A stretch of 64,000 bases of DNA from a virus. Shown here piece after piece: positions 16,254 through 63,036 of this stretch. The stretch spans positions 1 through 64,000 of IMG/VR virus record IMGVR_UViG_3300045009_000924, one strand, 5' to 3'. The position numbers and the translations under genes were made by a program. Below the pieces are notes generated by a model, which ran no database searches, was not told the DNA's origin, and saw only the letters and a program-made list of their open reading frames with translations. How positions within the stretch are numbered: the first letter of the stretch is position 1; each line of letters starts with the position of its first letter.

Positions 16254-16260
16254 AACACGA

Positions 16261-16297: not shown

Positions 16298-16300
16298 TAA

Positions 16301-16801: not shown

Positions 16802-16815
16802 TTTTTATTCCTCCG

Positions 16816-18267: not shown

Positions 18268-18319
18268 AGGACCTTCCTATTTTGTTTTGTTCGGGTTGGA
18301 ATCCCTTATGTTGATTTCA

Positions 18320-18357
18320 ATTGTACAGACAAGAAGTGATTATTTTGTGCAACTATC
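18320..18357 (-). promoter_or_regulatory. Putative phage promoter GATAG-TTGCAC-N21-TACAAT
   Basis: Intergenic, upstream of sheath; matches the element at 16261-16297. Confidence 0.45.
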
Positions 18358-18383
18358 AAATTGCTTTATTTTTAACATTCTCA

Positions 18384-19543: not shown

Positions 19544-19544
19544 A

Positions 19545-20192: not shown

Positions 20193-20267
20193 GAATTCTC
20201 CGGATGTAAATAGATATTGGGATTAAATACTTAAAACATTAAATTTTAACATCAATATCACATCTAA

Positions 20268-20705: not shown

Positions 20706-20710
20706 GTAAA

Positions 20711-29776: not shown

Positions 29777-31858
29777 ATGGCTTGGAATAGTTCACCGAAT
29801 AATAAATTGTTGGGTCGAGAGCGAATTAAAGCTCTTGGTTATGGCTTGCCAATATCGGCCAATCCCTCTTTTGCAGATAAACCATATAAAGATGGCTGGG
29901 ATATCGAGCGCGCCTACCGCGAGGGCATGTCGAAAATTACGTGGGTCAATAGGTGTATTGATGCCATAGCGGGAAATCAGGCAAGATTGCCAGTGATGTT
30001 GAGGAAAGACAATTCCAAATATGGCGAAAAAGTAAAAGGGAGGGAAGCCGATAGGTCAAAAACACTTGAATTGCTAAATAATAAAGCAAACATCGGTGAA
30101 AACTCTTTCATTTTCAGATACAGACTCTCGGCACAGCTTTTACTTGGCACCAGGGGGGCTTTTATAGAAAAAGTTAGGGGTCGAGACGGTGGGGTAGTCG
30201 CACTAAATTTGCTTCCCCCACAATCAACAGCGCCAATACCACACGTCAAAAATTTTGTGTCCGGATATGAAGTGTTAATGCCGTACGGAGTAAAAAAAAT
30301 ACTAAAACCAGACGACGTGTGTTGGATTAGAAGACCACACCCACTTGACCCATATTTATCCTTAACTCCACTTGAGGCTTCTGGAGTGGCCATAGAAATC
30401 GAAAATTTAGCAAAACTTTATAATAGAAACTACCTCCTCAATGACGGTCGTCCGGGTGGATTGCTGGTTGTTCGTGGCGAAATTGATGACGACGATAAAG
30501 AGGAATTGCGAAGTAGGTTTAGGGGGAATTTGGCGAAAACCGGTCAAACAACGGTAATTTCTTCAGATGAGGGTGTTGATTTTGTTGACACGTCAGCATC
30601 TCCGAGAGATGCCGCCTACATGCAAATGCGACAAATAACCAAAGAGGAAATACTTTCAGCTTTTGGTGTTCCCGAGTCTGTTATTGGAAATGCTGCGGGA
30701 AGAACTTTCTCAAATGCGGCCGAAGAAATAAGAGTGTTTTGGGTTGAAACAATGAGCCCCCATTTAGAAGTTGTTGCGAGAGCGATAGATGAACTGGACG
30801 AAGAATATTATATAGATTTTGATACTTCGGAAGTTCCAATTCTGATGCTCTACAAACAGGAACGAGAACGCTACTTAATGCAAGAACTTCAAGCTGGATT
30901 AATTAGTGTCAATGAATATAGACTTGGTTCGGCAAGAAAAGAAGTTGAATCGGATTTGGCAGATTCATTACTAATGAATCCCAACCTGATACCGATTGCA
31001 AATACAAAAAAGAAAATGGAAGAAAACGCTGCACAAATACCCGGAGCCCAAGGGGCAGCGCCCGGAATGCCCGGAATGCCCGGAATGCCCGGAATGCCTG
31101 GAATGCCCGGAATGCCCGGAGCAGAACAGCAACCCCTAGACCCCAACACAATGCAGGGGGCAATGGCTGGGCTTGCCAACGCCGAGTCACAAATGGCCCA
31201 GGATATGCTGGCCCCAAGCACTCTTCCACCCGAGGCAACCGGAGCGGCACCACAAACTGGCCAAGTTCCACAAGCAATGACGACGGCGTCGGATTCGGGA
31301 ATTCAAACAAAATCAAACGAACAAGAAGAAAATTCACAGTTTGCAATGGAGAGATGGTCTGAAATACTTTCACGTGGAATAGAGAGAATTATCGAAAGAC
31401 AACAAAGAGTTGTTTTGGAAAAAGCAAGCGGAGCCAAATCAAGAAAAGCATTATCCTCCGGAACTCTTGATATCGATTCAATTATTTCAGTTGACACATG
31501 GAACAAGCAGATAGAGGAAGATATAAAACCAGTAATTGTGGCAATAATCAATGACGGCCTTGAAAACAGAAATAATTTTTACGAGAAAAAGGGAATAAAA
31601 ACCAAATCTCTTCAACCAGTTGAAATAATTATGTTTGCCGACAAAAGAATTTCTGAAATTAAAAAATTAAACAAAGACGTTCATGCGGAAATTTCCTCTT
31701 TAATGATTAAATCATTTTCAATGAAAGACGAAGAAGAAAGATTTATTCAATTTAGACAAGGAATAATTGAAATGTATGCAAATGTTTTTGCAAAAGAACA
31801 AGTTGCTGTTGCTGAATCAGAAACAATCCTCGCTTGGAATTTTGGTCAACAAATTTAG
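29777..31858 (+). CDS. HK97-family portal protein with PGM linker and helical C-terminal extension
   Basis: WVNRCIDAIA, LLLG..GAF, NDGRPGGLL, I.SAFGVP and ISVNEYR portal motifs. Confidence 0.92.
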   Translation: MAWNSSPNNKLLGRERIKALGYGLPISANPSFADKPYKDGWDIERAYREGMSKITWVNRCIDAIAGNQARLPVMLRKDNSKYGEKVKGREADRSKTLELLNNKANIGENSFIFRYRLSAQLLLGTRGAFIEKVRGRDGGVVALNLLPPQSTAPIPHVKNFVSGYEVLMPYGVKKILKPDDVCWIRRPHPLDPYLSLTPLEASGVAIEIENLAKLYNRNYLLNDGRPGGLLVVRGEIDDDDKEELRSRFRGNLAKTGQTTVISSDEGVDFVDTSASPRDAAYMQMRQITKEEILSAFGVPESVIGNAAGRTFSNAAEEIRVFWVETMSPHLEVVARAIDELDEEYYIDFDTSEVPILMLYKQERERYLMQELQAGLISVNEYRLGSARKEVESDLADSLLMNPNLIPIANTKKKMEENAAQIPGAQGAAPGMPGMPGMPGMPGMPGMPGAEQQPLDPNTMQGAMAGLANAESQMAQDMLAPSTLPPEATGAAPQTGQVPQAMTTASDSGIQTKSNEQEENSQFAMERWSEILSRGIERIIERQQRVVLEKASGAKSRKALSSGTLDIDSIISVDTWNKQIEEDIKPVIVAIINDGLENRNNFYEKKGIKTKSLQPVEIIMFADKRISEIKKLNKDVHAEISSLMIKSFSMKDEEERFIQFRQGIIEMYANVFAKEQVAVAESETILAWNFGQQI
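31061..31119 (+). repeat. 9-bp tandem repeat (cccggaatg, about 6.5 copies) encoding PGM
   Basis: Directly visible. Confidence 0.95.
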
Positions 31859-31929: not shown

Positions 31930-31956
31930 AAATAAACAAAATAGAAAGAATTATTG

Positions 31957-34900
31957 ATGCAGGAAAAATTTCAGTACAAATCTAGCCATATTGCTACGTT
32001 GGGGCCAAAGTCAAGCTCGCTCAATCTGGATGAGGCTCAGGGAATAGTTGAATGTTTTGTTGCTGGAATAGGCAACAAAGACAGCGTCGGCGACATTGTC
32101 GCGGCTGGTGCCTTCACAAAGAGCTTGCAGCGCAGAAAACCAAGAGTTGTCTGGGGACACAATTGGAATGACCCAATCGGCAAGGTTTTGGAAATATATG
32201 AAGTTCAATCTTCTGACCCACGTCTGCCAATGAAGATGAAAGTTGCTGGAATAGGTGGTCTCTTTGCAAAAGTTCAATTTAATCTTAACTCAGAAAAAGG
32301 AAGAGAAGCTTTTGCGAACGTTGCATTTTTTGGAGAAGAACAAGAATGGTCAATCGGTTATAAAACACTGAGAGCGCAGTTTGACCAGAAATCGCAGGCA
32401 AATGTAATTTTTGAACTTGAACTTTATGAAGTTTCACCAGTTCTTCATGGAGCAAATCAACTTACCGGAACTATTTCTGTAAAGAACGACATGCTCGCAG
32501 AGCAGCAAACAACCCCGGCAGGTATTTCGGTTGTGCTACCAGGCGAACAGTCGATTGATAGAGAAGAAATACAAAAGCAACTCTGCAATATGTATGGTTC
32601 AAAAATACATGTTGTTGATGCAGATGCGGAAACGGTTACTTTCGTTAAACCAGGAGAAAAGGGGGGATATGAAAAATATAAATGTCACTGGATTAGGAAC
32701 GGTGGAACATTTATGTTTGGAAATCCACAAAGAGTTTTTACGCCACAAGAGCTTCCCCAGCAGCCACAGGTTGTCATTTCCCCGCCATCACCCCACATTC
32801 ACCCAGCGCAGCCGCAAAGAATTGTCAGACCACAGCAAATGCCGGCAATACCGGTTGCAATAAAACCAAATCCAATCGGACCGGGAACAGTGATGGTTCC
32901 ACTTCCAAAAATTGAATATGAAGGCGACTCGCCCCAAATAGATAAAAATAATCTGGACAAAGAGGAAGCGGAATTGCGCGACGCGTTGTTAAAAATTGTA
33001 AAACGACATGGAAAATTCAATGAAGATGGAACTGGTGTTTGGGCTGGGTATTATCCTCCAGAAAAAAATCCAGTTGCGGGAATCGGCGTAAAATGCGCAA
33101 ATTGTGTTCTTTACAATGGTGGTTCATCTTGCAAAATAATTTCTCTCCCTGTTCACCCAGAGGGCAAATGTAGATTTGCGGTAATACCGAATGGCGTCGT
33201 AAAAGGCTATGAATCTGATAAAAAAGCAGCCGAAAAATTTGAGGACGATGAACGGGAAGACTACCTAATTGAAATGGAAGCAAAATATCCAGGTGAACTT
33301 CTTTTGGCTGGCTTACGTGGTGCTGTCGGTAGGTTGAGAAAAAAGAAAAGAAAGAAAAAATATAAAGACTTAGCAGAATTCAACGAAGACGAAATAGACG
33401 AAAAGGGTTATTGTATTGGAATTGACCCAGAAGATGCATTCGCGGTCAAACAAATCCTTGACCCAATCTTTGATTACTACAAAGCTGAAACATTTGTAGA
33501 TGTTGATGGAATAGTAATTCAGTCTGGCATTAGTTACGATTTGATAGAAGCTGTAGATAACGCGCTCGAAAACAACGAGATAAAAAAAAAATTATTAGTT
33601 GAGTCTGGCGTTCAGGTAAAAAACCTCGGAAGAAGAATTGCTTCTTACGGTGCCGCTCGTTTAATAGATAGACCCAATCTTGGTGGTCGTTCTCGCAGGG
33701 GTGGCAAGCGCGGATTTGGCGTTCCGGAGGGCGACCTCAACCCAGATACACGCGTAGACAAAAATAGAAACGGTTTGCTATTCGATGGATTTCCGGGGTG
33801 GGAGCAACCAGACCCAACTCCATACGGACCCGGCTCAATGTACAACACAGACGTCACACCAGAACAACGAATAGACAGCGGGAAAATTGGGACAGAGGGA
33901 AAGCCAATTGGGGGAGATGGTGCAGTAACGGACCTGGTTAAGCGCCCAGAGGACAAGCCCCAGTTGCGGAGCGGTCCAGCGCGCCCCACCGATGAAAACT
34001 TTGTTCAGCCGCTTGATGAAAAACCCAAGCCGCAAAAACCAAAATCAAATGAACAAAGAAGAATTAAATCTGGAAGAAATCTGGCACGACATGGACTCGG
34101 CAGGGAACATGAACAAAAATTTGGTGTCAGCAGAGATGAAAAACAAAGAAGAGAAGATTTTGACAAAATAGTTCAAAATTGGATTGATTCAGGGTTCAAT
34201 TGGGAACAATCACCAAGAAGTTCATCTGACAAAAAAGTTTCAGAAAATTATCTTCGTGGTAAAGAAATGGGGAGAAATCAAGCTCGAGTTGCATGGAGGG
34301 GAACTAATAGGGGGAGCGGAAAGCGACCGGAAGGTTTCAATGAAAAAAATAAATCGAGCAAAGAGTATGCAGACTGGTTTTTTATGTATGCCGGTCACCT
34401 TGGAAATTTTGCACGAGCTCTAGATTCGAAAAAAATAAAAAACAGAGAAGAATATGATAAGGGAATAAAAAAGGGAATATCTGAACATTTTGCAGACAAG
34501 CTTCCAGATACTTCAAGTTGGGATATTGATAAAACAAAAAAATACAACAACTGGCTAAATGAATTCGGATATGAAACAAATGTTTCCGACGGAAGGCTTT
34601 CCTCCGGTGATTTGCGCGAACGAACCGCCAGGGGGGGACAAACAAAAATTGAAGGATTGGATGGGGGTTTTGACCCCGACAATCCATTTGGCGACGAAAA
34701 TATGCCATACGACTTGGGCTTTGATGTATACGACAAAATAATTGAAGAATTCCTGGGAGAGGAAACTCCGAAGAAATTTAGGCCAAAACAAGACGAACCG
34801 CAAGCCTGGAGTGATGAGGAAATATATCGAAGAAGAATGAGCGGTGCAACCCTACAGGAGGTTGCCGATATTCTCGGCTGGAGTCGCCAGGAAGTTAGAC

Positions 34901-37900
34901 AAGCAGAACAAAGACACATGTACTTCTTGCGAAGCGGCAAAAAAATCGAAAGACCAAAAAGACTTAATAAATTGAGAAAACGAAGAAAAGAAAATAAGGA
35001 AAAAGTAAAAGCATTAAAAGAAAAACAAAAAGCGGAAAAAGAAAAAGAAAAAACAGAAAGAATCGCCAAAGAAAAAGAAGAAGCAGAAAGAATCGCTCAA
35101 GAAAAATTAGACAGAGAAGAAAATCGCGGACGCCTTTCCTCTGGTGGAAATGAAAAATTAGATAACGCAGGGCCGGTTGGTCACGTACTCAGCCAGGTTT
35201 CCCCTCGGAGAGCAGAAAGACTTTCTTCTGGGGCCAATCTAAATGAAGCTGAATTGGAAAAATATTATGACAACATGAAGTTTCAAATTCTTTCTTCAAT
35301 ACAGGAAGCATTAAAAAATCCGGATTTGAAATTTGATAGACCATGGGCGCGCACTGACAATTATGCAAGAAACCCAACAAACAAAAGACGAAACGTAGCG
35401 GGAAGGGCATACGAGGGCAGCGGACAGTTAATTTTGTCCATGAAAGGTTTCACGCAAAAATACCCAGTGGCAAAATGGGCTGGGGCAAAGCAGTGGAAAG
35501 AAATTGGCGGGAGAATCAGAAAAGGCGAAGCACCAACATGGATTCTTGCCCCAACAATAAAAAACGGGAGAAGAACTGGCGAGTTCCACATGACGGCGGT
35601 GTACAACATTGCCCAAGTGGAAGGATTGCCACAGGCAATGTACAAGGCAATGCCAGATGTGATTTCAGAAGAACAAAGAGTACAAAACGTTCAAAATATA
35701 ATTAACGAAATCGGGCCAGTTGTTGAAGAAGGAAATTTCGGAGGTGCATTCTTCAATAACACAAGAGATACCATATTCATGCCTAAATTCGGACAATTTG
35801 ATAGCGCTGTTGATTATTACGCCACTTTGATGCACGAGATAACACACTGGACCGGCCACGAATCAAGACTTAGACGGAAAAAGGGGAAAATGACAGCTCC
35901 GGAGTTTTCCGACGAATTCAGGCAGTATGCGTTTGAGGAATTAATTGCTGAAATCGGCTCTTCTTTGATAATGGGAATGCTCGGAATAACGCACAAATTC
36001 AGACAAGACCATGGAACATATCTAAAAGAATGGGCAAGCCAATTGAGCACGGACCCAACCGCAATTAGGAGAGCAATGGTTGAAGCACAAAAAGCTGTTA
36101 ACTATGTCCTAAATCGCTCCGCGACGCTCAGAAGACTTGGTGGTTTTGAACCCGACGAAAGAAGAAGCGAAGGTGACCTCAAGTATGAAATTCCACTTAT
36201 TGAGGGAATGGTTGATTCTCCTTCGGTGCCCAGGGGTGGGGTTATTCGCGGAACATTTGAACAAATAGATGATGACGATTCAAGACTTTCATCCGGGAAA
36301 ATAGAAGATTTTGCAACTCGACCACACAAAGCTGGAAAAACGCACAAGATAGGAACAAGAGGCTGGAGCGCAATAGATAGACAAAACGGCGATAGAGAGG
36401 TTTATCACTATTCGACAATGATGGGAATCATACGAGGCAATGAATACTTTGAAATTTCAAAGGGCTGGGACTCCACATCAGACAAACAGGGAATAAATAA
36501 AATACTCAAAGCTCTGGGGCAAAAGGAACCAAGAAGAGCAGCAGAACTAGAAATTACAAACAGGCTCAACTCTGGCAAGATAGAAGATTTTGCAAACAGA
36601 CCACACGTCCCCAGCAGGCGAATAAAAGCAGGTAGCGGTGGGGCCTGGAGCTCTTTTGATTTGGCAAATGGTGATAGGGAAATTTACCACTACTCAACAA
36701 AAATGGGTTTTATACGAAACGGAGCATTTTACCAAGAATCCGATGGGTGGGGTTCTGTTTCCGACAAACAGGGAATAAATAAAATACTTAGAGCTTTGGG
36801 GCAAAAAAATGCCATAAGAGTTCAACAAATTGCAAACCTAAATACAGACGATGATGACAGATTTGTATCTTTGCCGAAAAAAGATGAAAATGGAAAAGTA
36901 ATAGACGCAACTGGGAGACTTTCGAGCGGCGGGGGAATCATAAACTCCGTAAAAAACCCCAAAGATAAAGACAAACAAATCAAAAGAACAGAAGACGTTT
37001 CATTTCAACTTGCTCACCAGCTTCCAAATGAGCCCACCCAGCAGCAAAAAGATATTATCGAAACTGCAATGATGGCCATAACCGGAAAATTGCGACCATA
37101 TAAAAATAAACAGGGAAGAATGGTGTACCCGGTCATATCCGTCCAAGCCGCAGCGGGAACGGGAAAAACAACAACACTCAAATGGCTTGCTAGAACATTA
37201 GACGATTTGTTTAATTTGGAAATTGGAAACGAAGCAGAAAGAAAAGAAAAATTAAGTTTTCTATCGCAAAGATTTGATGTTGATTTTTCGAAAATGACCG
37301 ATGAGCAAATAAAAAAGACAGTCGAAAGCTTAAAGGATAAGTATGGTTCTAAATCACTTTATTACGCCGTATTCAACGTAAAAAACCAAGAAGAGGCCGA
37401 AGCTGTTTTTCCACAAAATACCGGCGTAGCTACGCTCGACAAATTGGCACGATGGGGCGTGATGATGGGTGCTGCAAACGAAAAGTTTGGAGACCATATT
37501 GCAAGAAAGCTTACGGCAGCTGGGGCGAGAGTCGACAGGGCGAGAGATTTTGATGACCAAGGAAAACCGATAGGCGGCGCTGTAACCACACTCAAAAACG
37601 ATGGAACACCATATCAATTCACTTATGTCGACTACGCAACTGGCGAAAGAAAACAAACAGGGCCACACCCAACAGCAAAATTGCCAGACGGTTCACCCGC
37701 TGGGCAAAAGCCAACACTTGAACACACGGGATTAATAACTCTAGAAACAACAGATGATTTCCTGCGATTTCTAAAATTACAACCAGATTCAAGAAATCTT
37801 CCGGGTTCCGACAGATTGCCAGACCTGGATGGAATGACACTCGCCGAAATAATTAGGCATGCAGTAGAAAGATGGACACTAAGCACAGATGAAAAATTGT

Positions 37901-40900
37901 CAGCAAAGCATTTTTCTTATGATGAAGAAGACATTCTATCAAGGCAATCTGGCTATAACCAACGAGTTGCAACGGGACAGGCAACATTAGATGTTGGATA
38001 TGAACAAAAACTTGATGAGGTGGGTGACCCGGTTTTCGATGACGAGGGCAAACCAGTAATGGTGAGAGCGAAGGAAGCTATCGGGAGCACAGATTTCAAC
38101 CCGCGTTTTTGGGTACGCGTACAGGAGGACCCAGAAGCAAATATTCCTGAAGAATGGCTAAAAATGGGCCAAAAAGTTGTCGAGAATATATTGCAAGAGT
38201 TTTATGTAGACGAAAAAGGTAAAAAACAAAAAACACTTGTTCTTCCGAGCCAGGGGCAAATCGCAAAAATATTTGCTCTTTCAAACCCGGACCTTTCAGA
38301 AGCAAAATACATGGTCGGTCACGCAAAAGGTGTAACAAGGCGTGATGCAGTTCGCACAAGTGCTAAAGTCGGGGACGTAGTAGACAAAGACGGCAATGTT
38401 ATAAAAGATGTTAGAAAACTTCCTCCAGACTTTCCGTTGTGGATTGTTACTGCAATAGATGGTGCTGGTGCTATTGAAAAACCCAAAAAAGGAGGTAAAA
38501 CTCCAAGCGTTGAATCGTCCAAAAGAACTGCAACCATCAGAAGAGTATTTGCCGACCCATTAAGAAAATTGAATGCTTTATTTATTGATGAAGCACAAGA
38601 CCTTAACCCAACATTCATGTCAGTTCTTGAAAACAACAGAGATAAATTCCCAATAATTCTCGTTGGCGACGAAAGACAGTCCGTTTACAATTTCAGAAAT
38701 GCAGTAAATGCAATGGAGTTAATGGACCCAGATTATATTTTGCCGCTCAATGAATCATTTAGATTTGGTAATAGGCTAGCTCATCAAGCAAATATACTTC
38801 AAGCATATTTGAATCTTGACGATGAAGAACTTGCGGCGACAAGGGGCGAACTACCACCGCGAAGACAATGGGTGACGGGTCATCATCACATGCTTGTTGC
38901 GAAACAATTTGATGACGCAATAGAATTGCTTAAAAAATCAGATTCATTAGACAAAAGAGACAAAACAACGCTATTGAGAATTTTGAGCGCACTGGACAAA
39001 GAATTCAAATTGTCTCAAGAATTCACAGAAAAAACAAAATCACCAGAGTATGTTCTCATTACCGATGAGGGTATTTCAGCAAAAGACAAAATTAAATTTC
39101 TCGAAAAAAGAAAAGCTAGTGCCGTAGAAGAATCGGAAGGAAGAATACACAATCGATTTGCCTATGTGCTGGATGAAAATGGGCAAAGAATACCGGAACT
39201 CGACAGTGATGGCCAACCACAACGAGATAAAGACCACAATATTGTGTACAGAAGAGTTGGCCCACTACTTCCTAAAATTGGAGAAACTTTTGCATTTCTT
39301 GCTGGCACAAATGAGGAATTAATACAAAAAGCATTTGAGTACGCCCAACTTTTGAACAACGAAGTCCAGATGGAAACACTTGCATGGATTATTAGAAATC
39401 CCGGCAAGACTCCACCACCAGGGCTTGTTCCTCAAATAACTATCGCTCCCAAAAAATTCGACGATATTCTTACGTTTCTTAAGCACTACGCCTGGGTTTT
39501 GGATAGCGCAAAGGGACGTGCAGGAAAAAAACCGCCCAAATCTCCATTTATAGGAAACCTGTGGACTAGAGAACAAATTAAAAGAGAAGCTTTAAGGCCG
39601 GGCAAAACACAGCTTAGAACAATGTGGAGAATACTTCACCCCCGCAACGGCCAACCAATGCACCCACGAAGACTTATACACCTAATGGAGGGAGGAATGC
39701 GAAGAACTGGTGTTTTGGGACCAGACGGCCGAGAGACACTTGTGTTCGAACCAGCAGTCATTCTCCCTGAACGCAAGGTACTAAAAATTGAAACACAATT
39801 TCATTTTCTTCATGCAAAAAAAGAAAAAGGCGAATTAAGCATCGAAGAATTGAAAAATCAACCAACAACAAAATTAAGCAACAGAGCAGACGTAACCGAC
39901 ACCTCTCTTAATAAAGTGACCGTGTTGGCTGGCAAAGGCAAAGGCGACTCTGCGCAACAGTCGGATATTCACTGGCATCTTGAAATGGAACAACAAGATA
40001 GCAGTGGTAAATGGAAAGTAATTGACGGAACATGGGACCACAACTCCAAAAAACCAGGACGATGGACTGGGCGAGTCATACTAACTGGACAGGGACTCAG
40101 TGGCTCAAAGTTAAGGGGAGGCGGACAAGGTAAACGAAGACCAGCTGGGTATTATCAAGAAGATGTAAAAAGAATAACCACAAGAGACCCCAGATTCAAA
40201 AAATATTTTGTTTATGAAGAAAGCATGGGAGTGATTAGGCGTGCCGCCGCTGCAGGGCAGGGTGAAACAACTTCACGAAACGACCAATATGCGATAGACA
40301 TAAAAGACGTTGATGGAAGCGAAGAAAGACTGTCAGAAATAATACGGGAAGTTTCACAGGAAATACTCAAAGCGGCAAACACAAATGGGGCAGATGCAAC
40401 GATAACGACAGCGCAACTATTTAAAGGACTCGAAGCACATACCATCGTGATAGGTGAGGCTTTCCAAAATGCATTTGACGAAGAAAGAGAAGCGTTTAAA
40501 AGAGTCGGTAAAAAATCACCACAAATGAGAGAAATGTTGAATACTGTATATGTCGCTTTAACTAGAGCAGAAAAACAAATTGACATTGGCGAAAGAATCG
40601 CCAAACTTTATTTTAATAGAGATAGCAGGCGGCGAGCCATAGACCACATAAATGACGAAATTGCAAAACTTAGAAAATCTGGAAAGCCAGAAGATTTGAC
40701 ACTTGCAGATGCTCTCGAAATTCCCCAAAATCATTTTTACGGCATTGATGACGACGACCCGAGAAGACCAGGACTACCAACCCCCACCTCACGGTCGGAT
40801 GATGACGATACACGGGTGAATGAGGAGGCAGATAATGCCGAAATAGAAGTAGATAATGCCGAACTAGAAGAGGATGAAAACATAGTTCCCAACAAAGATA

Positions 40901-43900
40901 ATGATGATGATGATGGGGAACCAACTGTTGATGAAGACAACATTGCCGGCAAGGATGATGAACAAAATGAGGATGAAACCTCTTATGTCAACTCTGGCAG
41001 GGTGAGCTCCGGAAGAGAAAATAACATAGTGGCAGTGTTGGGCAACCGGCCACGACGAGGAGTTCTCTCTCGGGAAGCTCAAAAAATTTGGGATACAAAC
41101 TTCCCCGAGCAATTGAATAAAATAATAAAAAATAACAATAAAAATGATGTATTGTCCCTTTATTCAGATACAACAAAATCAGAAATATCAAAAATATATA
41201 GAGGAAAAAATCGCTCATCGACTTTTTCGGAGAACCCGGATTTGGGGTTGGACCCAGACCACGAAGAGACGGAGTTTGATTTCTTCAATGTAAACCAAAA
41301 AGATTTTGAAAAAGCAAACAAGTTAATTAATCGGGTCGGCAAAGTATCAAATGTTGTCTGGGCACTGAAAAATTCAAACGATAAAAATTCAAGTCCCAAA
41401 ACACAGCTGGCTGCGAAAAAAATACTCAATGATGCACGGTATGACCGACTTTCATCTGGCAGGGCCGACAGAAGAGTAATTAAGAGTCTTGACGACGTCA
41501 AACAAAACATGAAGTATGACCACAGCAGGGCTGCGGATTACAAAATGACGGACGAGCAAATAAATATATCCGATGCAGTAATGACAGGGGACAACATTGT
41601 TGTTCGAGCCCTTGCGGGAACTGGAAAAACCTCAACCTTGCTGTCGACCGCAAAACGATTGCTTGACCAAGAGCCAGACAAGAGAATTGTCTATTTGACG
41701 TTTACAAGAAAAATGGCAGAAGAAGCAAGAAAAAAATTTAAAGATTACCCCAATGTTGAAGTTAGAACTTGGGACTCCGTTGGATTTGGAATTATTGGAA
41801 CAAACGAAAAACTTGCACGAAAAACAAATTCACAAAATCCAGGAATAATCGGCGTCGGAAATAATGAAGATGTTGCTAACCATTACGGATTTCAGGATGA
41901 TTTTGAACAAATTCAAGTAAAAAACAAACAGGGAGATTTGGTTCCAGAAACTGTTGGCTTAACCAGAAGACAAAGAGCTGCACTAATGGCAAGAGCGGCA
42001 ACAGAATTTTCAACTGGAAAAAATCAAAAAACTAACAGACCCTATACGGAAATGAACAAATCTCTAATTGGAATCGCTGCTTCTAAAATGGGGATAAATA
42101 GACTCAGTGACAGACAAATCGAAGAACTCGTCCGTCAAGCTCAAAAATTTTGGAACGATTCATTCGATGAAAATAGTCCACTGGAAATGTCAAGAAGTTA
42201 TATTTTGAAAAAATGGTCATTAACAAACCCCGACCTTGGCACTGGCGCTGGTATGAAAAAAAATGTTGATGGCAATGACATAATTTTCTTCGATGAAGCA
42301 CAAGATGCCAATCCGGTGATGACTGATGTCATTAGAAATCAAAAAATTCAATGGATAGCGGTGGGCGACAGTAATCAAGCAATTTATGAATTCAGGGGCG
42401 CCGTTGACGAATTGGAAGACCTTGAAGCTCCATATCAACTAACGCTCACAAAAACATTTAGATTTGGCAAAGAAATACAGGCTATTGCAAACAGATTTCT
42501 CAAAGCTCATGAAACAAAACTGACAAACGAAGAAGACGAAACACCAATATTCGCAAAATTGAGAATCGACGCAGCTGGTCCAGAGGGAATAATTCTCGAT
42601 TCCGAGGAAATGTTTCCCAAAGGAATTGCCGTTTCTGCAACTAGGGAAACAAAGAAAAATGGAAGTAAGGAAACACTTGCATTTTTGTCACAAACAAATG
42701 CAAAATCTTTTGAAAGAATAATTAATGAACAAGACAATGGTCGAAAAACAGGGTCAACAACTACATTTAAGAATGACCTGACCGGAATGATTGACCACAT
42801 GGAATGGTTGCAGGGTGGTAAGAAGACTGAAAAACCTAAGAATGTATTTCCGCCGCTGTGGAGCGTAAAAAATTGGGACGAACTTGCCAAGGCCGCAGGC
42901 CCACTTGGAGAGGGGGGAGCAACCGAGCTAGGAGGGGGAGCACCGGAAGAATCAGTTGAAAATGTCGACGTAAGTCAACAGGCACTTACCGCTTACAGAT
43001 TATTTGCTAAATATAACTTTAACTGGTCAAAAATGAGACAACATGTAGCAAATATACAAACACTTGATGGCGGAGATGTAATAAGTAGAAAGATAACTGC
43101 TGCAGATTTGCTCGATGAATTTGAACCAGTGGAAATTGTTGATGGCGGAGTTTTGTCGGCAAGCTGGAACCCACGAACAAAACAAATTGTTTTGAAAAAC
43201 GAGGGGGGAGATTGGGGGCAATTCACTGCTTACAAAGACCTATTGATAAAAGGCAAATACAAATTTACCTGGGGGGACCCAGCCGGTAAATACGGCAGAA
43301 AAACAGAACAACCAGGATGGCACCTGGAAGTTCCCAATGTTGATGCTGCTGCTTCAACTCTCAATAATCTTGCTAAAGATATTGAAATTGGTATACCGGG
43401 TGGTGATTCTCCGGAGTTTTCTTCACTTCAAACTTTTTCCCCCATTGTTGAGGGGAGCGGGAGCATACCCAATTATTTGAGCGGCGCGAAATACATCGAT
43501 GATAAAAGAAACACAAAAACAGTTAACTCCGAAATAACACTTCGTTTCAAGCGAGCAGATGGAAAATTTGTTGCCGTGGCGGATGGAAACACATTCCAAG
43601 TAAAAAACGTACTCAAGGGACAAGACCCCAAAACCAAAAAGTCAACATTTGCATGGTCGTCAAAAGATAAACCCCAATTTGGCGAACCAAATAAATGGGT
43701 TACCTCAGCAGACACAATTGAGGAATTGTACGAAAAACTTGAAAACCTCCGAAAAGTTAATAATTTAAGCGGTGGTTCCTCCTTCTTGCTGCAACCAACA
43801 CCATTGCAGGGGGCGGCGAAGAATAGTGTTGACATAGTTGCGCAAACAGCACATAGGTCCAAAGGACTGGAATTCGACAATGTTATTTTGGCGGGTGATT

Positions 43901-46368
43901 TCAAGGCACCGAAATGGGAGGAACTAGCTGAGGAATTAATAGTAAAAATGCAAAAAGATGGAAGAGTTATATCTAAAGAAGACATTGGTTCTCTTAAGGA
44001 ATTTTTGGAACTTCTTACACCCAAAGAGAGAGAAGAATTTAAGAAAAAGATAATTAAATCGATGGGAGCTGAAGAAATTCGATTGCAATATGTTGCCGCA
44101 ACAAGGGCAATGCGAAGACTTGTTCCGGGTTCACTTTCATGGATATTCGACGTCACCGACAATGAGGACGAAGAATTTAAAAAAGTGGACATTTCGAAAC
44201 CAAAGACACCAACAAGAAGAGCGGAAAGAAGAAATAGAAACACACAAGAGGGGGATGACAGGGTCTCGTCTGGCAGAGACCGAGACGAATCTGAAATTGA
44301 CCCCGATTATCCAATCGCAACAGAGGAAGAGCGTAGACAGAACGAATATGAAATGGGCCTGGATAATGAGGTAGACGAAAGAATTAGAGAAGGAGACAAA
44401 AAGAGCAGGAGACAGATAGAAAAGGAAATAAACCAAAGAGACGTAGATGCTGGAGATGAACAGGCAAAAGTAAAACAAAGAGAAATTATCGATAGAGATA
44501 AAAGATTGCAAAGTTCTGAAATTGACCCCGATTATCCAATCGCAACAGAGGAAGAGCGTAGACAGAACGAATATGAAATGGGCCTGGATAATGAGGTAGA
44601 CGAAAGAATTAGAGAAGGAGACAAAAAGAGCAGGAGACAGATAGAAAAGGAAATAAACCAAAGAGACGTAGATGCTGGAGATGAACAGGCAAAAGTAAAA
44701 CAAAGACAAATTATCGATAGAGATAAAAGATTGCAAAGTGGCGCTGACCAAACGACAGAAGAGGGAAGGCTGGCAAGAAGAAACAGAAAAAACAATAATA
44801 TTGACGATTCTGGCGATGGGCGAATCAGCAGTGGCCGCGACACGGTGTCTGCTCGAATCGTAGAAAAAATGCACGGCTTTAGTGCTGACAATGATGAAAA
44901 TGAATCGGCGAGACGCGCATGGGAGAGAATAAAAGAAAAAGGTTGGTTGATTGACCCATCGGGTGTCACTGGCGAGGGAATAGACAAAAAGAAAATCGAA
45001 TCAACATCTATTGGAATGGCAAATATTGGTTCGAGAATAGCCGCCAGAAACAGAAAAATAAAAATTGGTGACATATCAAAAAATAATCCTGATTCAGCAA
45101 ATCAAGAAACATGGATGCTTCCTGTTGAAAAACTTAAAAAAATGATACGAATACCCACCAAATGGGACCCCGAAACTGGCGACGTAATTGAAAGACGGGA
45201 ATTAAGTAGCGCAGAATTGGGGACAATGCTCAATTTGACTATTAGCGAATCCAGAAAATTAAATTCACCCAATGCGGGATTGTCGTTTAATGATGTCATG
45301 TATTTGATTGCAGAAATCGGAAACGAGCCAAGATTTGATTCATGGAGACTTTTCTCGCCGACAACTCTTGATGAATCTGGAGTTTCCGAATCAGACTATA
45401 TGCAGAGAGCTATAGATAATTTAGGAAGAGCAAAACTTAGGGAGAGATTTGTTCTGGAAACATTTGGCAAAGATGCATTCCCCATGTACATCGGGAGAAA
45501 CGAAAAAAATAGGATATCCCAATCCGAATATGAAAAAATGGACTCTGATAAAAGATTTGAATATGGTGGAATTTTTAAAGATGATGGTTCTTCGGAAGAT
45601 GCAAATACGGAATTGATGTATGAAGGAATGCGGTCTGATTCCCCAATTCCATTCACGCAAAATATAAATAAAACAAATACGACAACGCCAATTTCTCCCG
45701 TTTCTTCAAATGCAAAAACAATGAGAGCAGAATTCAGATTGAGCGAATTATTGGCAGCTCTGGGAATATCGGGAGAAGAAACAATTGCCGAAAAAGATAA
45801 AAAATTAAATTCATTTCTTAGCAGAAGTTCAATAGGTGAACAATCGAGAAAAACTATTGGAAGATGGGAAGCGATGGGTGTTCCCACTTCCGTTATTTCC
45901 GAAATGATTAAATCCGGGATTATAAAAGACGCAGCATCAGTGTTTAAAAATACCGATGTCGGAAGAAGGCTTGACATGGAATTGTCGAGACCAAAATATT
46001 CAGTTTATGAAGCGTTGCTTAATTTTATTAAAGAAACACAAGGTAGTTCGCCAAAAAATACAAGAAAAACAGTTTCCGACATACTTGACGCAACTGATGC
46101 TTACAACTACCTTCCGCAAATAGCAAAAGCCAAAGGTTCGATGCCATATTCTGCAAACGTCGGCGATATTCCCAGGTACTCAGATTCCGAATTGCAGCAA
46201 ATAGTAAATCGTTTCAATAATATTTTTGGAACCCAACACACAATTGATGATATTTTTAGCGACGAGCAAATTCGGCAGGCAAGAGAGAGAATAGAAAAAG
46301 ATGGAATTCATACGCCAATCGGCAAACCGAATGTAAGAACAAAACTAAAAAATGAAAATAATGAGTAA
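31957..46368 (+). CDS. Giant polyvalent head protein: HK97-type prohead protease, HiPIP-like, sigma70-R4-like HTH, ArdC-N/zincin, two SF1 (UvrD-like) helicases and unknown domains, punctuated by RLSSG motifs
   Basis: Protease (DSVGD..GAF, WGHN, WSIGY, LYEVSPV..GAN); HEITH..GH...EELIAE; two sets of AGTGKT/DEAQD/GD..Q/FRFG/KGLE/VA.TRA motifs. Confidence 0.9.
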   Translation: MQEKFQYKSSHIATLGPKSSSLNLDEAQGIVECFVAGIGNKDSVGDIVAAGAFTKSLQRRKPRVVWGHNWNDPIGKVLEIYEVQSSDPRLPMKMKVAGIGGLFAKVQFNLNSEKGREAFANVAFFGEEQEWSIGYKTLRAQFDQKSQANVIFELELYEVSPVLHGANQLTGTISVKNDMLAEQQTTPAGISVVLPGEQSIDREEIQKQLCNMYGSKIHVVDADAETVTFVKPGEKGGYEKYKCHWIRNGGTFMFGNPQRVFTPQELPQQPQVVISPPSPHIHPAQPQRIVRPQQMPAIPVAIKPNPIGPGTVMVPLPKIEYEGDSPQIDKNNLDKEEAELRDALLKIVKRHGKFNEDGTGVWAGYYPPEKNPVAGIGVKCANCVLYNGGSSCKIISLPVHPEGKCRFAVIPNGVVKGYESDKKAAEKFEDDEREDYLIEMEAKYPGELLLAGLRGAVGRLRKKKRKKKYKDLAEFNEDEIDEKGYCIGIDPEDAFAVKQILDPIFDYYKAETFVDVDGIVIQSGISYDLIEAVDNALENNEIKKKLLVESGVQVKNLGRRIASYGAARLIDRPNLGGRSRRGGKRGFGVPEGDLNPDTRVDKNRNGLLFDGFPGWEQPDPTPYGPGSMYNTDVTPEQRIDSGKIGTEGKPIGGDGAVTDLVKRPEDKPQLRSGPARPTDENFVQPLDEKPKPQKPKSNEQRRIKSGRNLARHGLGREHEQKFGVSRDEKQRREDFDKIVQNWIDSGFNWEQSPRSSSDKKVSENYLRGKEMGRNQARVAWRGTNRGSGKRPEGFNEKNKSSKEYADWFFMYAGHLGNFARALDSKKIKNREEYDKGIKKGISEHFADKLPDTSSWDIDKTKKYNNWLNEFGYETNVSDGRLSSGDLRERTARGGQTKIEGLDGGFDPDNPFGDENMPYDLGFDVYDKIIEEFLGEETPKKFRPKQDEPQAWSDEEIYRRRMSGATLQEVADILGWSRQEVRQAEQRHMYFLRSGKKIERPKRLNKLRKRRKENKEKVKALKEKQKAEKEKEKTERIAKEKEEAERIAQEKLDREENRGRLSSGGNEKLDNAGPVGHVLSQVSPRRAERLSSGANLNEAELEKYYDNMKFQILSSIQEALKNPDLKFDRPWARTDNYARNPTNKRRNVAGRAYEGSGQLILSMKGFTQKYPVAKWAGAKQWKEIGGRIRKGEAPTWILAPTIKNGRRTGEFHMTAVYNIAQVEGLPQAMYKAMPDVISEEQRVQNVQNIINEIGPVVEEGNFGGAFFNNTRDTIFMPKFGQFDSAVDYYATLMHEITHWTGHESRLRRKKGKMTAPEFSDEFRQYAFEELIAEIGSSLIMGMLGITHKFRQDHGTYLKEWASQLSTDPTAIRRAMVEAQKAVNYVLNRSATLRRLGGFEPDERRSEGDLKYEIPLIEGMVDSPSVPRGGVIRGTFEQIDDDDSRLSSGKIEDFATRPHKAGKTHKIGTRGWSAIDRQNGDREVYHYSTMMGIIRGNEYFEISKGWDSTSDKQGINKILKALGQKEPRRAAELEITNRLNSGKIEDFANRPHVPSRRIKAGSGGAWSSFDLANGDREIYHYSTKMGFIRNGAFYQESDGWGSVSDKQGINKILRALGQKNAIRVQQIANLNTDDDDRFVSLPKKDENGKVIDATGRLSSGGGIINSVKNPKDKDKQIKRTEDVSFQLAHQLPNEPTQQQKDIIETAMMAITGKLRPYKNKQGRMVYPVISVQAAAGTGKTTTLKWLARTLDDLFNLEIGNEAERKEKLSFLSQRFDVDFSKMTDEQIKKTVESLKDKYGSKSLYYAVFNVKNQEEAEAVFPQNTGVATLDKLARWGVMMGAANEKFGDHIARKLTAAGARVDRARDFDDQGKPIGGAVTTLKNDGTPYQFTYVDYATGERKQTGPHPTAKLPDGSPAGQKPTLEHTGLITLETTDDFLRFLKLQPDSRNLPGSDRLPDLDGMTLAEIIRHAVERWTLSTDEKLSAKHFSYDEEDILSRQSGYNQRVATGQATLDVGYEQKLDEVGDPVFDDEGKPVMVRAKEAIGSTDFNPRFWVRVQEDPEANIPEEWLKMGQKVVENILQEFYVDEKGKKQKTLVLPSQGQIAKIFALSNPDLSEAKYMVGHAKGVTRRDAVRTSAKVGDVVDKDGNVIKDVRKLPPDFPLWIVTAIDGAGAIEKPKKGGKTPSVESSKRTATIRRVFADPLRKLNALFIDEAQDLNPTFMSVLENNRDKFPIILVGDERQSVYNFRNAVNAMELMDPDYILPLNESFRFGNRLAHQANILQAYLNLDDEELAATRGELPPRRQWVTGHHHMLVAKQFDDAIELLKKSDSLDKRDKTTLLRILSALDKEFKLSQEFTEKTKSPEYVLITDEGISAKDKIKFLEKRKASAVEESEGRIHNRFAYVLDENGQRIPELDSDGQPQRDKDHNIVYRRVGPLLPKIGETFAFLAGTNEELIQKAFEYAQLLNNEVQMETLAWIIRNPGKTPPPGLVPQITIAPKKFDDILTFLKHYAWVLDSAKGRAGKKPPKSPFIGNLWTREQIKREALRPGKTQLRTMWRILHPRNGQPMHPRRLIHLMEGGMRRTGVLGPDGRETLVFEPAVILPERKVLKIETQFHFLHAKKEKGELSIEELKNQPTTKLSNRADVTDTSLNKVTVLAGKGKGDSAQQSDIHWHLEMEQQDSSGKWKVIDGTWDHNSKKPGRWTGRVILTGQGLSGSKLRGGGQGKRRPAGYYQEDVKRITTRDPRFKKYFVYEESMGVIRRAAAAGQGETTSRNDQYAIDIKDVDGSEERLSEIIREVSQEILKAANTNGADATITTAQLFKGLEAHTIVIGEAFQNAFDEEREAFKRVGKKSPQMREMLNTVYVALTRAEKQIDIGERIAKLYFNRDSRRRAIDHINDEIAKLRKSGKPEDLTLADALEIPQNHFYGIDDDDPRRPGLPTPTSRSDDDDTRVNEEADNAEIEVDNAELEEDENIVPNKDNDDDDGEPTVDEDNIAGKDDEQNEDETSYVNSGRVSSGRENNIVAVLGNRPRRGVLSREAQKIWDTNFPEQLNKIIKNNNKNDVLSLYSDTTKSEISKIYRGKNRSSTFSENPDLGLDPDHEETEFDFFNVNQKDFEKANKLINRVGKVSNVVWALKNSNDKNSSPKTQLAAKKILNDARYDRLSSGRADRRVIKSLDDVKQNMKYDHSRAADYKMTDEQINISDAVMTGDNIVVRALAGTGKTSTLLSTAKRLLDQEPDKRIVYLTFTRKMAEEARKKFKDYPNVEVRTWDSVGFGIIGTNEKLARKTNSQNPGIIGVGNNEDVANHYGFQDDFEQIQVKNKQGDLVPETVGLTRRQRAALMARAATEFSTGKNQKTNRPYTEMNKSLIGIAASKMGINRLSDRQIEELVRQAQKFWNDSFDENSPLEMSRSYILKKWSLTNPDLGTGAGMKKNVDGNDIIFFDEAQDANPVMTDVIRNQKIQWIAVGDSNQAIYEFRGAVDELEDLEAPYQLTLTKTFRFGKEIQAIANRFLKAHETKLTNEEDETPIFAKLRIDAAGPEGIILDSEEMFPKGIAVSATRETKKNGSKETLAFLSQTNAKSFERIINEQDNGRKTGSTTTFKNDLTGMIDHMEWLQGGKKTEKPKNVFPPLWSVKNWDELAKAAGPLGEGGATELGGGAPEESVENVDVSQQALTAYRLFAKYNFNWSKMRQHVANIQTLDGGDVISRKITAADLLDEFEPVEIVDGGVLSASWNPRTKQIVLKNEGGDWGQFTAYKDLLIKGKYKFTWGDPAGKYGRKTEQPGWHLEVPNVDAAASTLNNLAKDIEIGIPGGDSPEFSSLQTFSPIVEGSGSIPNYLSGAKYIDDKRNTKTVNSEITLRFKRADGKFVAVADGNTFQVKNVLKGQDPKTKKSTFAWSSKDKPQFGEPNKWVTSADTIEELYEKLENLRKVNNLSGGSSFLLQPTPLQGAAKNSVDIVAQTAHRSKGLEFDNVILAGDFKAPKWEELAEELIVKMQKDGRVISKEDIGSLKEFLELLTPKEREEFKKKIIKSMGAEEIRLQYVAATRAMRRLVPGSLSWIFDVTDNEDEEFKKVDISKPKTPTRRAERRNRNTQEGDDRVSSGRDRDESEIDPDYPIATEEERRQNEYEMGLDNEVDERIREGDKKSRRQIEKEINQRDVDAGDEQAKVKQREIIDRDKRLQSSEIDPDYPIATEEERRQNEYEMGLDNEVDERIREGDKKSRRQIEKEINQRDVDAGDEQAKVKQRQIIDRDKRLQSGADQTTEEGRLARRNRKNNNIDDSGDGRISSGRDTVSARIVEKMHGFSADNDENESARRAWERIKEKGWLIDPSGVTGEGIDKKKIESTSIGMANIGSRIAARNRKIKIGDISKNNPDSANQETWMLPVEKLKKMIRIPTKWDPETGDVIERRELSSAELGTMLNLTISESRKLNSPNAGLSFNDVMYLIAEIGNEPRFDSWRLFSPTTLDESGVSESDYMQRAIDNLGRAKLRERFVLETFGKDAFPMYIGRNEKNRISQSEYEKMDSDKRFEYGGIFKDDGSSEDANTELMYEGMRSDSPIPFTQNINKTNTTTPISPVSSNAKTMRAEFRLSELLAALGISGEETIAEKDKKLNSFLSRSSIGEQSRKTIGRWEAMGVPTSVISEMIKSGIIKDAASVFKNTDVGRRLDMELSRPKYSVYEALLNFIKETQGSSPKNTRKTVSDILDATDAYNYLPQIAKAKGSMPYSANVGDIPRYSDSELQQIVNRFNNIFGTQHTIDDIFSDEQIRQARERIEKDGIHTPIGKPNVRTKLKNENNE
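44290..44739 (+). repeat. 225-bp near-perfect tandem duplication (2 x 75 aa)
   Basis: SEIDPDYP...RDKRLQS occurs twice; one visible substitution (E/Q). Confidence 0.95.
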
Positions 46369-61484: not shown

Positions 61485-61521
61485 ATAGTTCCACTATTAA
61501 GTGTAAATAATCTGTTATTTT
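61485..61521 (+). promoter_or_regulatory. Putative capsid promoter ATAG-TTCCAC-N21-TATTTT, overlapped by the inverted repeat tatttacac/gtgtaaata
   Basis: Similar to the GATAGTTGCA elements; inverted repeat at 61456-61464 and 61501-61509. Confidence 0.35.
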
Positions 61522-61600
61522 GGAATATCACAGGGCTGGGTGCTTTCCTGAGCCGAGTAAAAAAAAAATCAATCCAACCCTCTCAATACAGGAGAAAAAA

Positions 61601-63004
61601 ATGTCGCAAGACAAAGCAAGAATCGATGAGCTTCAAACAGCCCTTCGCTCAAAGATGGCAGAGAATAAAAACATCGCTGATTCATTTAAAGTTGAAGACG
61701 GCACTGTCGTTGTTTCGGCAGAACAGAAAACAACATTCGACAAAAACATGCGTGACATCAAAGAAATCAAGTCACTCATTTCCGACCTCGAGTCAATGCA
61801 GGAAGTTTCCTCATGGGGCTCGGAGCAGAAAGAGACAAGTGTTGGTGCCGAATATTCAGCTGCAAATGCCGAAGTTGGTCAGTTGACATCACGTGAGCTT
61901 AAGACAATTGGCGAAATGTTCACGGAATCGCCAGAATTTAAAGCTCTAAACAACGGTCGCAATGGTGCAAACATGTCATCCCCATGGCAGATAAAGGCTT
62001 CATTGACCGGCCTGCAAGTGAAGGATGTCTTCACGGCGATGCCGACAGTCGGCAATCTCTCAGGATTCACCCGTGGAGGTGGCCTTGGTGATTTCGGCAG
62101 TGTTCAGCGCGATGCGATGATTACTCCGCCACAGAGAACACGTCGCGTGCGCGACCTGTTTCCAGTTCGTCGCACAACGGCTGCTGTAATTGAGTACTTC
62201 CGTCAGATTGGCTTCACATCGCTTGAGGCCCCAGGCGTAGACCACGCCAATGGCGTAACATACTCAACAAACAATGCAGCATCAACAGTTGCCGAGCGCT
62301 CCGGGAACGCGTTTGGAGCCAAGCCGCAGTCGTCATTCAAGTTCGTTGGTGAGCAGGCACCGGTTCGCACAATGGCGCACTGGGAAGCTGCACATCGCAA
62401 CGTTCTTGCCGATGAGCCGCAGTTGCGGTCAATCATTGACAATGAGCTGATGTACGGTCTGCGCCTTCTTGAGGATGCACAGATTCTCAATGGCAACGGC
62501 GCCGGCGAAAACCTCATGGGTGTCATGAATACGCCGAGCATTCAGGAGTACTCATGGTCAGATGGTGCCACTGAGCCAGTTTCGGACACAAAAGCCGACG
62601 CACTCCGTCGCGCCGCAACCCTCTCGTTCCTCGCGTACTACGAGCCATCTGGCATTGTGATGCACCCGAACGATTGGGAAGACATCGAGTTGACAAAAGA
62701 CGCAAACGGTCAGTACCTCCTTGCTGTGTCAATCGCACAGGGTGGCGCGCCACGCGTCTGGAGAATGCCGATTGTTGACACGCCGGCCATGCCAGAGGGC
62801 TTCGCCCTTGTTGGAGCATTCGGTACAGCTGCACAACTTTACGACAGAGAGGAAGCAAGCATACGCATTAGCGAACAGCATGCAGACTTCTTCATTCGCA
62901 ATGCAATCGTGATTCTTGCCGAGCAGCGCCTTGCGCTGGCTGTCAAGCGTCCGGAGGCTTTCGTCAAAGTTGAATTCGATGGGGCACCCTCCGTCTCCAT
63001 CTGA
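61601..63004 (+). CDS. HK97-fold major capsid protein with N-terminal delta domain
   Basis: AGGAG RBS; RVRDLF, KPQS, TMAHW, ED.QILNGNG, MHPNDW and AEQRLALAV.RPEAF motifs. Confidence 0.95.
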   Translation: MSQDKARIDELQTALRSKMAENKNIADSFKVEDGTVVVSAEQKTTFDKNMRDIKEIKSLISDLESMQEVSSWGSEQKETSVGAEYSAANAEVGQLTSRELKTIGEMFTESPEFKALNNGRNGANMSSPWQIKASLTGLQVKDVFTAMPTVGNLSGFTRGGGLGDFGSVQRDAMITPPQRTRRVRDLFPVRRTTAAVIEYFRQIGFTSLEAPGVDHANGVTYSTNNAASTVAERSGNAFGAKPQSSFKFVGEQAPVRTMAHWEAAHRNVLADEPQLRSIIDNELMYGLRLLEDAQILNGNGAGENLMGVMNTPSIQEYSWSDGATEPVSDTKADALRRAATLSFLAYYEPSGIVMHPNDWEDIELTKDANGQYLLAVSIAQGGAPRVWRMPIVDTPAMPEGFALVGAFGTAAQLYDREEASIRISEQHADFFIRNAIVILAEQRLALAVKRPEAFVKVEFDGAPSVSI

Positions 63005-63036
63005 TTCGAATAGCTTGGGCTAAATCACCAAGAACG

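Follow-up and report, generated by a model that had tools for sequence, protein, structure and literature searches.

The DNA analyzed here is a 64,000-base stretch of viral sequence (the window), corresponding to bases 1 to 64000 of the 103,248-base IMG/VR record IMGVR_UViG_3300045009_000924 (CheckV completeness 65%), and the subject is a giant gene within it that encodes a prohead protease fused to a long series of cargo domains. A single stop-free open reading frame (ORF) was found to extend over positions 31954 to 46368 of the plus strand, giving 4,804 amino acids (aa) from a TTG codon at 31954; the likely start is the ATG of the following codon (31957), which is preceded by an AGAAAG-like Shine-Dalgarno sequence and yields a protein of 4,803 aa. 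Residue numbers are counted from the TTG. A preliminary description of the window had placed its sole HK97-type maturation protease at the N-terminus of this 14.4-kb ORF, and profile searches bore this out: Pfam Peptidase_S78 (PF04586) scored 43 bits, with a cut-off of 21, and 49.3 bits when the genome was searched, and the PHROG family for head maturation protease (phrog_3244) matched at aa 29 to 187. The histidine and serine singled out earlier in the WGHN and WSIGY stretches are His69 (VVWGH) and Ser133 (EWSIGY), both of which, like His165, were invariant in an alignment of 25 sequences; by their position within the S78 family, His69 and Ser133 are the probable catalytic residues. No second S78, ClpP or S49 protease was found by profile search of the 103-kb record; a search for S77 carries no weight, as the control genomes gave no match either. 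The portal-protease-capsid gene order likewise held, with about 29 kb separating the protease domain from the capsid gene, and the large terminase and tail genes are encoded on the opposite strand.

Downstream of the protease, anti-restriction and helicase domains were identified by Pfam, and the PHROG families concurred on the protease, anti-restriction and helicase assignments (Table 1). The domain matches of the first helicase module fall at aa ~1720 to 2250 and those of the second at aa 3197 to 4057. Of the cargo functions predicted earlier, anti-restriction and helicase were thereby upheld; the transcription-related function corresponds only to a sub-threshold match of a helix-turn-helix (HTH) to sigma-70 region 4. 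PF04545/PF08281 were found to recur in homologues of the giant ORF. The C-terminal module is nearly confined to the clade (26 clusters), and the ESM Atlas yielded no lead for it. Two tandem domain copies of ~93 aa were also observed at 36283 to 36930, each opened by RL[SN]SGKIEDFA, and two acidic 78-aa repeats at about 44275 to 44742, each ending in RLQS[SG]; both pairs look like the duplication of whole cassettes, linker included.

Table 1. Features of the protease-cargo gene and of other genes in the window (positions in bases of the window).
Feature	Position	Strand	Basis or remark
Protease-cargo polyprotein gene	31957..46368	+	ORF; architecture common to at least 199 proteins, 419 loci
Conserved N-terminal module	31957..33579	+	Protease, Pro/Gln-rich linker, four-Cys domain, small alpha/beta domain (aa 480-547)
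S78 (HK97-type) prohead protease domain (aa 30-179)	32041..32490	+	Pfam, PHROG
A10 run, codons 543-546, candidate slippage site	33582..33591	+	
Stops in both shifted frames	33596..33602	+	TAG (33596-33598; one A lost), TGA (33600-33602; one A gained)
Cargo leader (aa about 552-650), directly after run	33607..33903	+	Local alignment
RLSSG site 1 (aa 881)	34594..34608	+	
Sigma-70 region 4-like HTH, weak	34822..34914	+	Sigma70_r4, aa 957-987, 16.9 bits vs cut-off 24.1
RLSSG site 2 (aa 1060)	35131..35145	+	
RLSSG site 3 (aa 1089)	35218..35232	+	
ArdC-like anti-restriction module: ArdC-N (aa 1111-1199), MPTase-PolyVal zincin (aa 1245-1374)	35284..36075	+	Pfam, PHROG
RLSSG site 4 (aa 1444)	36283..36297	+	
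RLNSG site 5 (aa 1537)	36562..36576	+	
RLSSG site 6 (aa 1655)	36916..36930	+	Orthologous RLASG in G001, LSLSSG in G003
UvrD/SF1-like helicase module 1	36931..40998	+	Pfam AAA_19, Viral_helicase1, AAA_22 pieces
RVSSG site 7 (aa 3016)	40999..41013	+	
RLSSG site 8 (aa 3165)	41446..41460	+	
UvrD-like helicase module 2	41461..44259	+	UvrD-helicase, UvrD_C, phrog_1967
RVSSG site 9 (aa 4103)	44260..44274	+	
RLQSG site 10 (aa 4259)	44728..44742	+	
RISSG site 11 (aa 4290)	44821..44835	+	
Conserved C-terminal module, 510 aa	44836..46365	+	Always C-terminal in homologues
Portal protein gene, directly upstream of giant ORF	29777..31858	+	
Second giant protein, 2836 aa	48196..56706	+	Four RLSSG sites; no family match
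Major capsid protein	61520..63004	+	Likely ATG 61601; delta-like N-terminal extension of ~125 aa; no RLSSG
Putative tape measure protein, 1836 aa	9971..15481	-	Size and tail-module position; no family match; RLSSG at aa 42 and 590

The fusion of protease and cargo was confirmed to be real, conserved and unusual. When residues 1 to 560 were used as a query against proteins of 2,642 to 8,407 aa, at least 199 matches from many sources were obtained; among the 120 matches listed, nearly all carry PF04586, and most add ArdC-N/MPTase, helicase domains or both. In IMG/VR, 419 related loci were identified. An assembly fusion was thus ruled out, as hundreds of independent assemblies have the identical architecture and agree with the uninterrupted frame seen here. 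Five long relatives were examined, four of which are rated 100% complete (151 to 170 kb), including two with direct terminal repeats. Each of the four complete genomes has a single S78 match, located in an ORF of 2,954 to 3,723 aa, and in every relative the polyprotein gene is positioned between the portal and capsid genes. Coverage along the protein revealed that the N-terminal 600 aa are conserved, the ArdC/MPTase block is widely shared, the middle is variable and the C-terminal 500 aa are again conserved, so the pattern of a conserved protease with variable cargo, for which a comparison of orthologs had been proposed, was found. In cultured phages, tblastn matched the protease domain alone, in actinophages; the nearest of these proteases (from Gordonia and Brevibacterium phages) share 39 to 45% identity over aa 4 to 193, and two were examined, of 484 and 501 aa, each encoded directly upstream of the capsid gene. 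No close cultured relative was detected by blastn against 50,697 phage records. In some relatives the N-terminal module is a stand-alone product of 534 to 548 aa.

The boundary between the N-terminal module and the cargo was found to coincide with a run of ten adenines (A10). The run is in frame with the cargo in this record, and the shifted frames meet TAG after 2 codons or TGA after 3. A run of A9 to A11 occurs at the same codon in 75 of 79 usable relatives, representing 41 distinct sequences, in all of which both shifted frames stop within 1 to 6 codons. The 30-nt flanks of the 41 distinct runs are only 54% and 42% identical, and AAA accounts for 42% of the lysine codons elsewhere in the same genes; by these figures, the run is kept at the nucleotide level beyond the need of the protein. 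In two of the complete relatives (G001 and G003), the junction run is the sole A/T run of at least 10. The 534 to 548-aa proteins of relatives cover 97% of the first 560 residues and end just after Lys-Lys-Lys. In one such locus (L073), the short ORF ends after A9 and the cargo continues straight from the run in another frame; the same holds for L009 and L010, from two further samples, and for L072, in that each has A9 and a cargo frame with no start codon before the conserved leader, so the leader would be translatable only by a shift. A second A9, in frame, was observed ~125 codons into the cargo of L073 (12000 to 12008) and also of L009 and L010. Two more A10 runs are present in this record, at 61559 to 61568 of the window, just upstream of the likely capsid start, and at genome positions 102819 to 102828, as is a G14 run outside the window (genome positions 96372 to 96385); none of these three was conserved in G001 or G003.

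The length differences at the junction also raise the alternative that the run is a DNA-level contingency switch (phase variation) or a mere lysine-rich linker, with each phage making either the short or the long form. A9, A10 and A11 alleles do occur among near-identical relatives (e.g., L072 vs L067 to L070), and RNA structure downstream of A10 was not significant (z = −1.05). However, (i) a phage locked in the A9 state could not translate a conserved cargo of more than 3,000 aa or its leader, (ii) the run remains pure A in genes that otherwise prefer AAG for lysine, and (iii) bacterial RNA polymerase slips efficiently on runs of nine A or nine T (PMC5009743). We consider this alternative very unlikely as an account of the run, while noting that phase variation and programmed slippage are not mutually exclusive. 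At the same junction, a distant clade of relatives carries an A7 heptamer in the context GGN-GGN-TCA-AAA-AAA, followed 6 to 7 nt later by a stem-loop. In this clade, eleven distinct junctions default to the short form, the cargo being reached only by shifting to −1, and four default to the long form, where the −1 frame ends after 3 codons. A search for covariation in the distant-clade stem-loop revealed one-sided changes only and no double compensatory pairs.

The region directly after the run was found to recur in a protein that has no protease. A third giant of 5,254 aa is encoded outside the window (genome positions 73953 to 89714; L106), and its N-terminus aligned locally with the leader of the protease-cargo protein at z = 11.9 against shuffles; in G001 and G003, too, the third giant starts with a region that aligned with the leader. 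BLAST among the three giants gave no matches, and the likeness emerged only from direct local alignment. The first LSSG-type site (see below) lies ~100 to 130 aa into each third giant (aa 120 to 128), where the leader ends, and in the protease-cargo protein the leader ends at a degenerate site. Pfam identified an RNase_T (DEDDh) exonuclease at aa 165 to 351 of the third giant, right after the leader; ART, GNAT and zincin modules in the same protein did not reach E 0.001. Cargo polyproteins with and without a fused protease thus have an N-terminal module in common, which suggests an ancestral arrangement of a protease gene plus a leader-cargo gene. Because the protease-free third giant has it too, the leader, and not the fusion alone, is a candidate packaging signal. 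The second giants of this record, of G001 (14262 to 21515) and of G003 (126915 to 135041) have a conserved N-terminus of their own, with a Cys-Cys pair and YEDTDN[RK]KR, and no leader. Cysteine makes up 0.12% of the three giants vs 1.3% of the remaining proteome, and is thus about ten times rarer, and the putative tape measure protein has none; the low cysteine content of the giants was repeated in G001 and G003. Such scarcity fits, but does not prove, that these proteins travel unfolded or survive outside the cell.

A short motif, R-[LIV]-S-S-G or a near variant, was found to punctuate the giants, with 11 copies in the protease-cargo protein, 4 in the second giant, 10 in the third and 2 in the tape measure protein. 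It was not found elsewhere in the proteome of the record. Strict R[LIV]SSG sites number 23 in the three giants vs 0.07 after shuffling, the enrichment over the remaining proteome is significant (Fisher P = 3e-8), and none of the sites falls within a Pfam domain. In almost all homologues the most frequent 4-mer is some version of the motif, whose form differs by lineage (RLSSG, SLSSG, GLSSG, FSSGR, GLASG, GLAS[ST] and GM[RSA]S, with more in the distant clade). Within a genome, the three giants use one variant: those of this record have 23 R-form and 0 S-form sites, and the three giants of G003 have 18 S-form and 0 R-form sites. Such concerted change in genes that are not linked points to a single reader shared in trans. 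The motif also persists where the homologue itself carries no zincin, and S78 is the constant partner on the same polypeptide there as elsewhere.

These data bear on which enzyme would cut the motif. One alternative is that the zincin (MPTase) domains or a host protease act on the LSSG sites once the protein has been ejected into the new host, with S78 serving only to mature the head; in line with this, the MPTase-PolyVal domain is present at aa 1245 to 1374, release of domains by MPTase autoproteolysis has been suggested for related proteins (PMC5512222), and the motif bearers (the three giants and the tape measure protein) are all expected to leave the virion, with the capsid protein lacking the motif. 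Counter to it, S78 is always present but MPTase is missing from the same polypeptide in many homologues with 9 to 15 motif copies, and the 460-aa protease-only products of the distant clade bear an LSSG of their own; the co-change of the residue before LSSG would be expected with any shared protease and is, on its own, no argument for the zincin. We regard cutting by zincin or host protease as unlikely, and S78 as the better candidate. Herpesvirus assemblin cuts at Ala-Ser sites, and cutting of the motif between small residues would resemble this, a likeness that is only suggestive. Related stretches were also observed in portal proteins: K-A-L-S-S-G-T at about aa 560 in this record, within an SR[KE]xLSSG[TS]L stretch that recurs in the distant relatives L127 and L176, and [IV]-A-S-[GS] about 14 aa from the portal C-terminus in other relatives.

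The best reading of these results, which we hold with moderate confidence, is that the gene encodes a Gag-Pol-like, slippage-tuned, self-processing polyprotein that is packaged in the head. The sequence gives directly the ORF with its domains, the conserved fusion, the enrichment, placement and co-variation of the motif, the A-run in its frame context and the leader common to two giants; slippage, packaging, cleavage of the motif by the S78 protease and ejection are here inferred from these features. The first ~545 residues, comprising the S78 protease and a conserved assembly-type extension and matching the ~500-aa protease(-scaffold) proteins of cultured relatives, would enter the prohead. 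In late expression, the A10 at codons 543 to 546 would cause slippage of RNA polymerase and possibly of the ribosome: messages with the template number of A would give the full 4,803-aa protease-cargo protein, and those with one A more or less would end 3 to 4 codons later, giving a protease-only form of ~547 aa (~61 kDa). Since the N-terminal module is common to the two forms, it is proposed that the long form co-assembles with the short one and is incorporated in the prohead at a set low ratio, bringing the cargo with it. The ~100-aa leader may act as a capsid-targeting signal, since it also heads a separately encoded giant. The protease would then cut the R-[LIV]-S-S-G motifs between domains to release the ArdC-like anti-restriction module, the two UvrD-like helicases, the HTH protein and the conserved C-terminal module, and the released modules would leave the head with the DNA at infection. 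Extended to the whole clade, the proposal becomes a Gag-Pol-like system in which recoding sets the product ratio, the shared leader targets the giants to the prohead, S78 cuts a lineage-specific motif that co-evolves with the protease, and the virion is armed with changeable anti-defense enzymes; this broader form we offer tentatively, as possible and somewhat short of probable.

The preliminary description had held that, as the protease must enter the prohead, the fusion would force the cargo to be co-packaged. Co-packaging is indeed the most economical reading, because the fusion is real and conserved, has a variable middle and lies in the head module; to say that it is forced is too strong, since (i) the conserved A10 at the junction should also give the ~547-aa protease-only product, (ii) some relatives are out of frame at the junction by default, (iii) the 5,254-aa giant has the leader and a cleavage-like motif with no protease, and (iv) the motif is also present outside the head proteins, in the tape measure protein.

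Several observations weigh against the packaged, slippage-tuned polyprotein. At the junction, the out-of-frame A9 states could be homopolymer errors, though three samples agree; four relatives (50 to 53% identity) and 30 distinct junctions of the distant clade are plain fusions with no A-run. As plain fusions occur in both clades, two products are not required family-wide; the fusion is therefore best seen as the family trait and recoding as a recurrent refinement in some lineages. As to structure, an AlphaFold model was of low confidence (pLDDT 57) and gave no significant match in Foldseek, where the Epstein-Barr virus (EBV) and herpes simplex virus 2 (HSV-2) proteases appeared at ranks 21 and 45 (E 0.27 to 0.43); a PDB sequence search with the short form returned nothing useful. 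By our estimate, a cargo of ~480 kDa per copy would limit the number of copies in a head for 150 to 170 kb of DNA. With regard to cleavage, the capsid protein, the canonical substrate, has no LSSG and instead carries a conserved ANM[SVA][SA]PW where its delta-like domain should end, a test of the capsid motif that excludes the distant clade because the loci of that clade stop short of the capsid genes. Moreover, the sites in the tape measure protein are conserved, with KLSSG and VLSSG at the aligned positions of G001 and a degenerate KLGS in G003. Tail proteins are normally out of reach of a head protease, and because this one carries the motif, cutting inside the prohead is not the whole story.

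The tape measure sites also lend some support to the view that the gene is an expression polyprotein and nothing more, in which one late transcript is translated, the enzymes are cut apart in the cytoplasm and act in the producing cell, and the cargo is left unpackaged: with the same motif on a protein outside the head, the cutting enzyme may act in the cytoplasm. This view does not account for the gene standing between the portal and capsid genes in every relative, and a conserved short/long device with a shared assembly-type N-terminus is hard to explain without co-assembly; in addition, anti-restriction proteins of the ArdC type and polyvalent proteins are described as working when the DNA enters, ahead of phage gene expression (PMC5512222). 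We therefore consider expression alone quite unlikely and favor a packaged polyprotein. Elsewhere in the window, DUF3721 repeats were found in the gene just before the capsid gene (60684 to 61454), DUF6321 in the gene after it (63123 to 63998), and a PAPS-reductase-like gene in the opposite-strand block (22218 to 23444, minus strand). The G+C content is ~0.51 at the two ends of the window (1 to 2000 and 62001 to 64000) vs ~0.40 inside, and the capsid gene lies in the right-hand rise.

How phages load, dose and release the proteins that accompany their DNA is understood in few model phages only. If the proposal is correct, a single gene would encode the complete solution, with the protease module serving assembly, the A-run setting the dose, the leader giving the address and the LSSG-type motifs marking the cuts between interchangeable enzyme cassettes. 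The injected anti-defense cargo would then be predictable from sequence in hundreds of uncultured phages, and foreign proteins could be loaded into phage heads with the gene as a natural scaffold. After dnaX, it would make a second natural case of one two-product result reached by related genes via either polymerase slippage or ribosomal frameshifting.

Among known systems, the closest class is that of the polyvalent proteins defined by Iyer, Burroughs, Anand, de Souza and Aravind in 2017 (PMC5512222). As in these, the protein described here combines several unrelated conflict-related domains around an ArdC-N plus MPTase hub, includes helicases and is encoded among virion late genes; delivery with the DNA has been predicted for polyvalent proteins, a minority of which carry an assemblin-like (prohead) peptidase (PMC5512222). 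Such peptidases were reported to be rare, 'always at the C termini', and predicted to process the polyvalent protein that bears them (PMC5512222). Here, in contrast, the peptidase is N-terminal, is the only maturation protease of the phage and is conserved across hundreds of relatives. The protein is within the polyvalent class, with the peptidase at the opposite terminus from that described, which is a variant of architecture and not a ground for exclusion. What is new with respect to this class is the inverted architecture together with the motif code, the leader and the recoding site; a term search of the text of PMC5512222 turned up neither the LSSG code nor a shared leader nor a recoding site. 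A literature search likewise retrieved no published description, and queries with the motif string and with slippage plus prohead protease gave nothing relevant.

With head-borne cargo the proposal shares prohead packaging, trimming at a short consensus motif and ejection with the DNA. The internal proteins of T4 and Alt are packaged in the prohead and trimmed by the protease, with removal of an N-terminal capsid-targeting sequence (CTS), and the ejection proteins of SPN3US are described as cut by the prohead protease. The cargo of T4, SPN3US and phiKZ consists of separate gene products processed by a T4 gp21-type protease at a motif ending in Glu, whereas here it is strung together in proteins of 2,800 to 5,250 aa, one of them fused to S78, and the motif is of the LSSG type. 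Unlike the T4 CTS type, the motif is not common to all substrates, as the capsid protein has no LSSG. The likeness to retroviral Gag-Pro-Pol is one of logic only: an N-terminal assembly part would be present in two products of different length, their ratio would be set by recoding where the parts join, the longer one would bring enzymes into the particle, and the protease, which is embedded, would cut at defined sites. The proteins are unrelated, however, and the phage system defaults to the long form and would use as its signal a homopolymer after which both shifted frames meet a stop. Maturation proteases fused to the scaffolds that bring them into the procapsid, with two products per locus, are also found in herpesvirus UL26/UL26.5, lambda C/Nu3 and Mu I/Z; these pairs share their C-terminus through internal initiation and carry scaffold, whereas the cargo here comprises enzymes for the next host. 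The closest parallel for the junction itself is dnaX. In Thermus thermophilus, slippage occurs on a 9-base run in this gene with stops in both shifted frames, and about half of the product is full length (PMC5009743), while Escherichia coli dnaX uses −1 frameshifting at A_AAA_AAG to make tau and gamma (Atkins et al. 2016; PMC5009743). The phage gene differs from dnaX in identity and biology and in being known from sequence alone. Nonetheless, like Thermus dnaX, it has an in-gene A/T run of at least 9 with close stops in both shifted frames, and, as for dnaX, related genes in other lineages use a heptamer and stem-loop instead.

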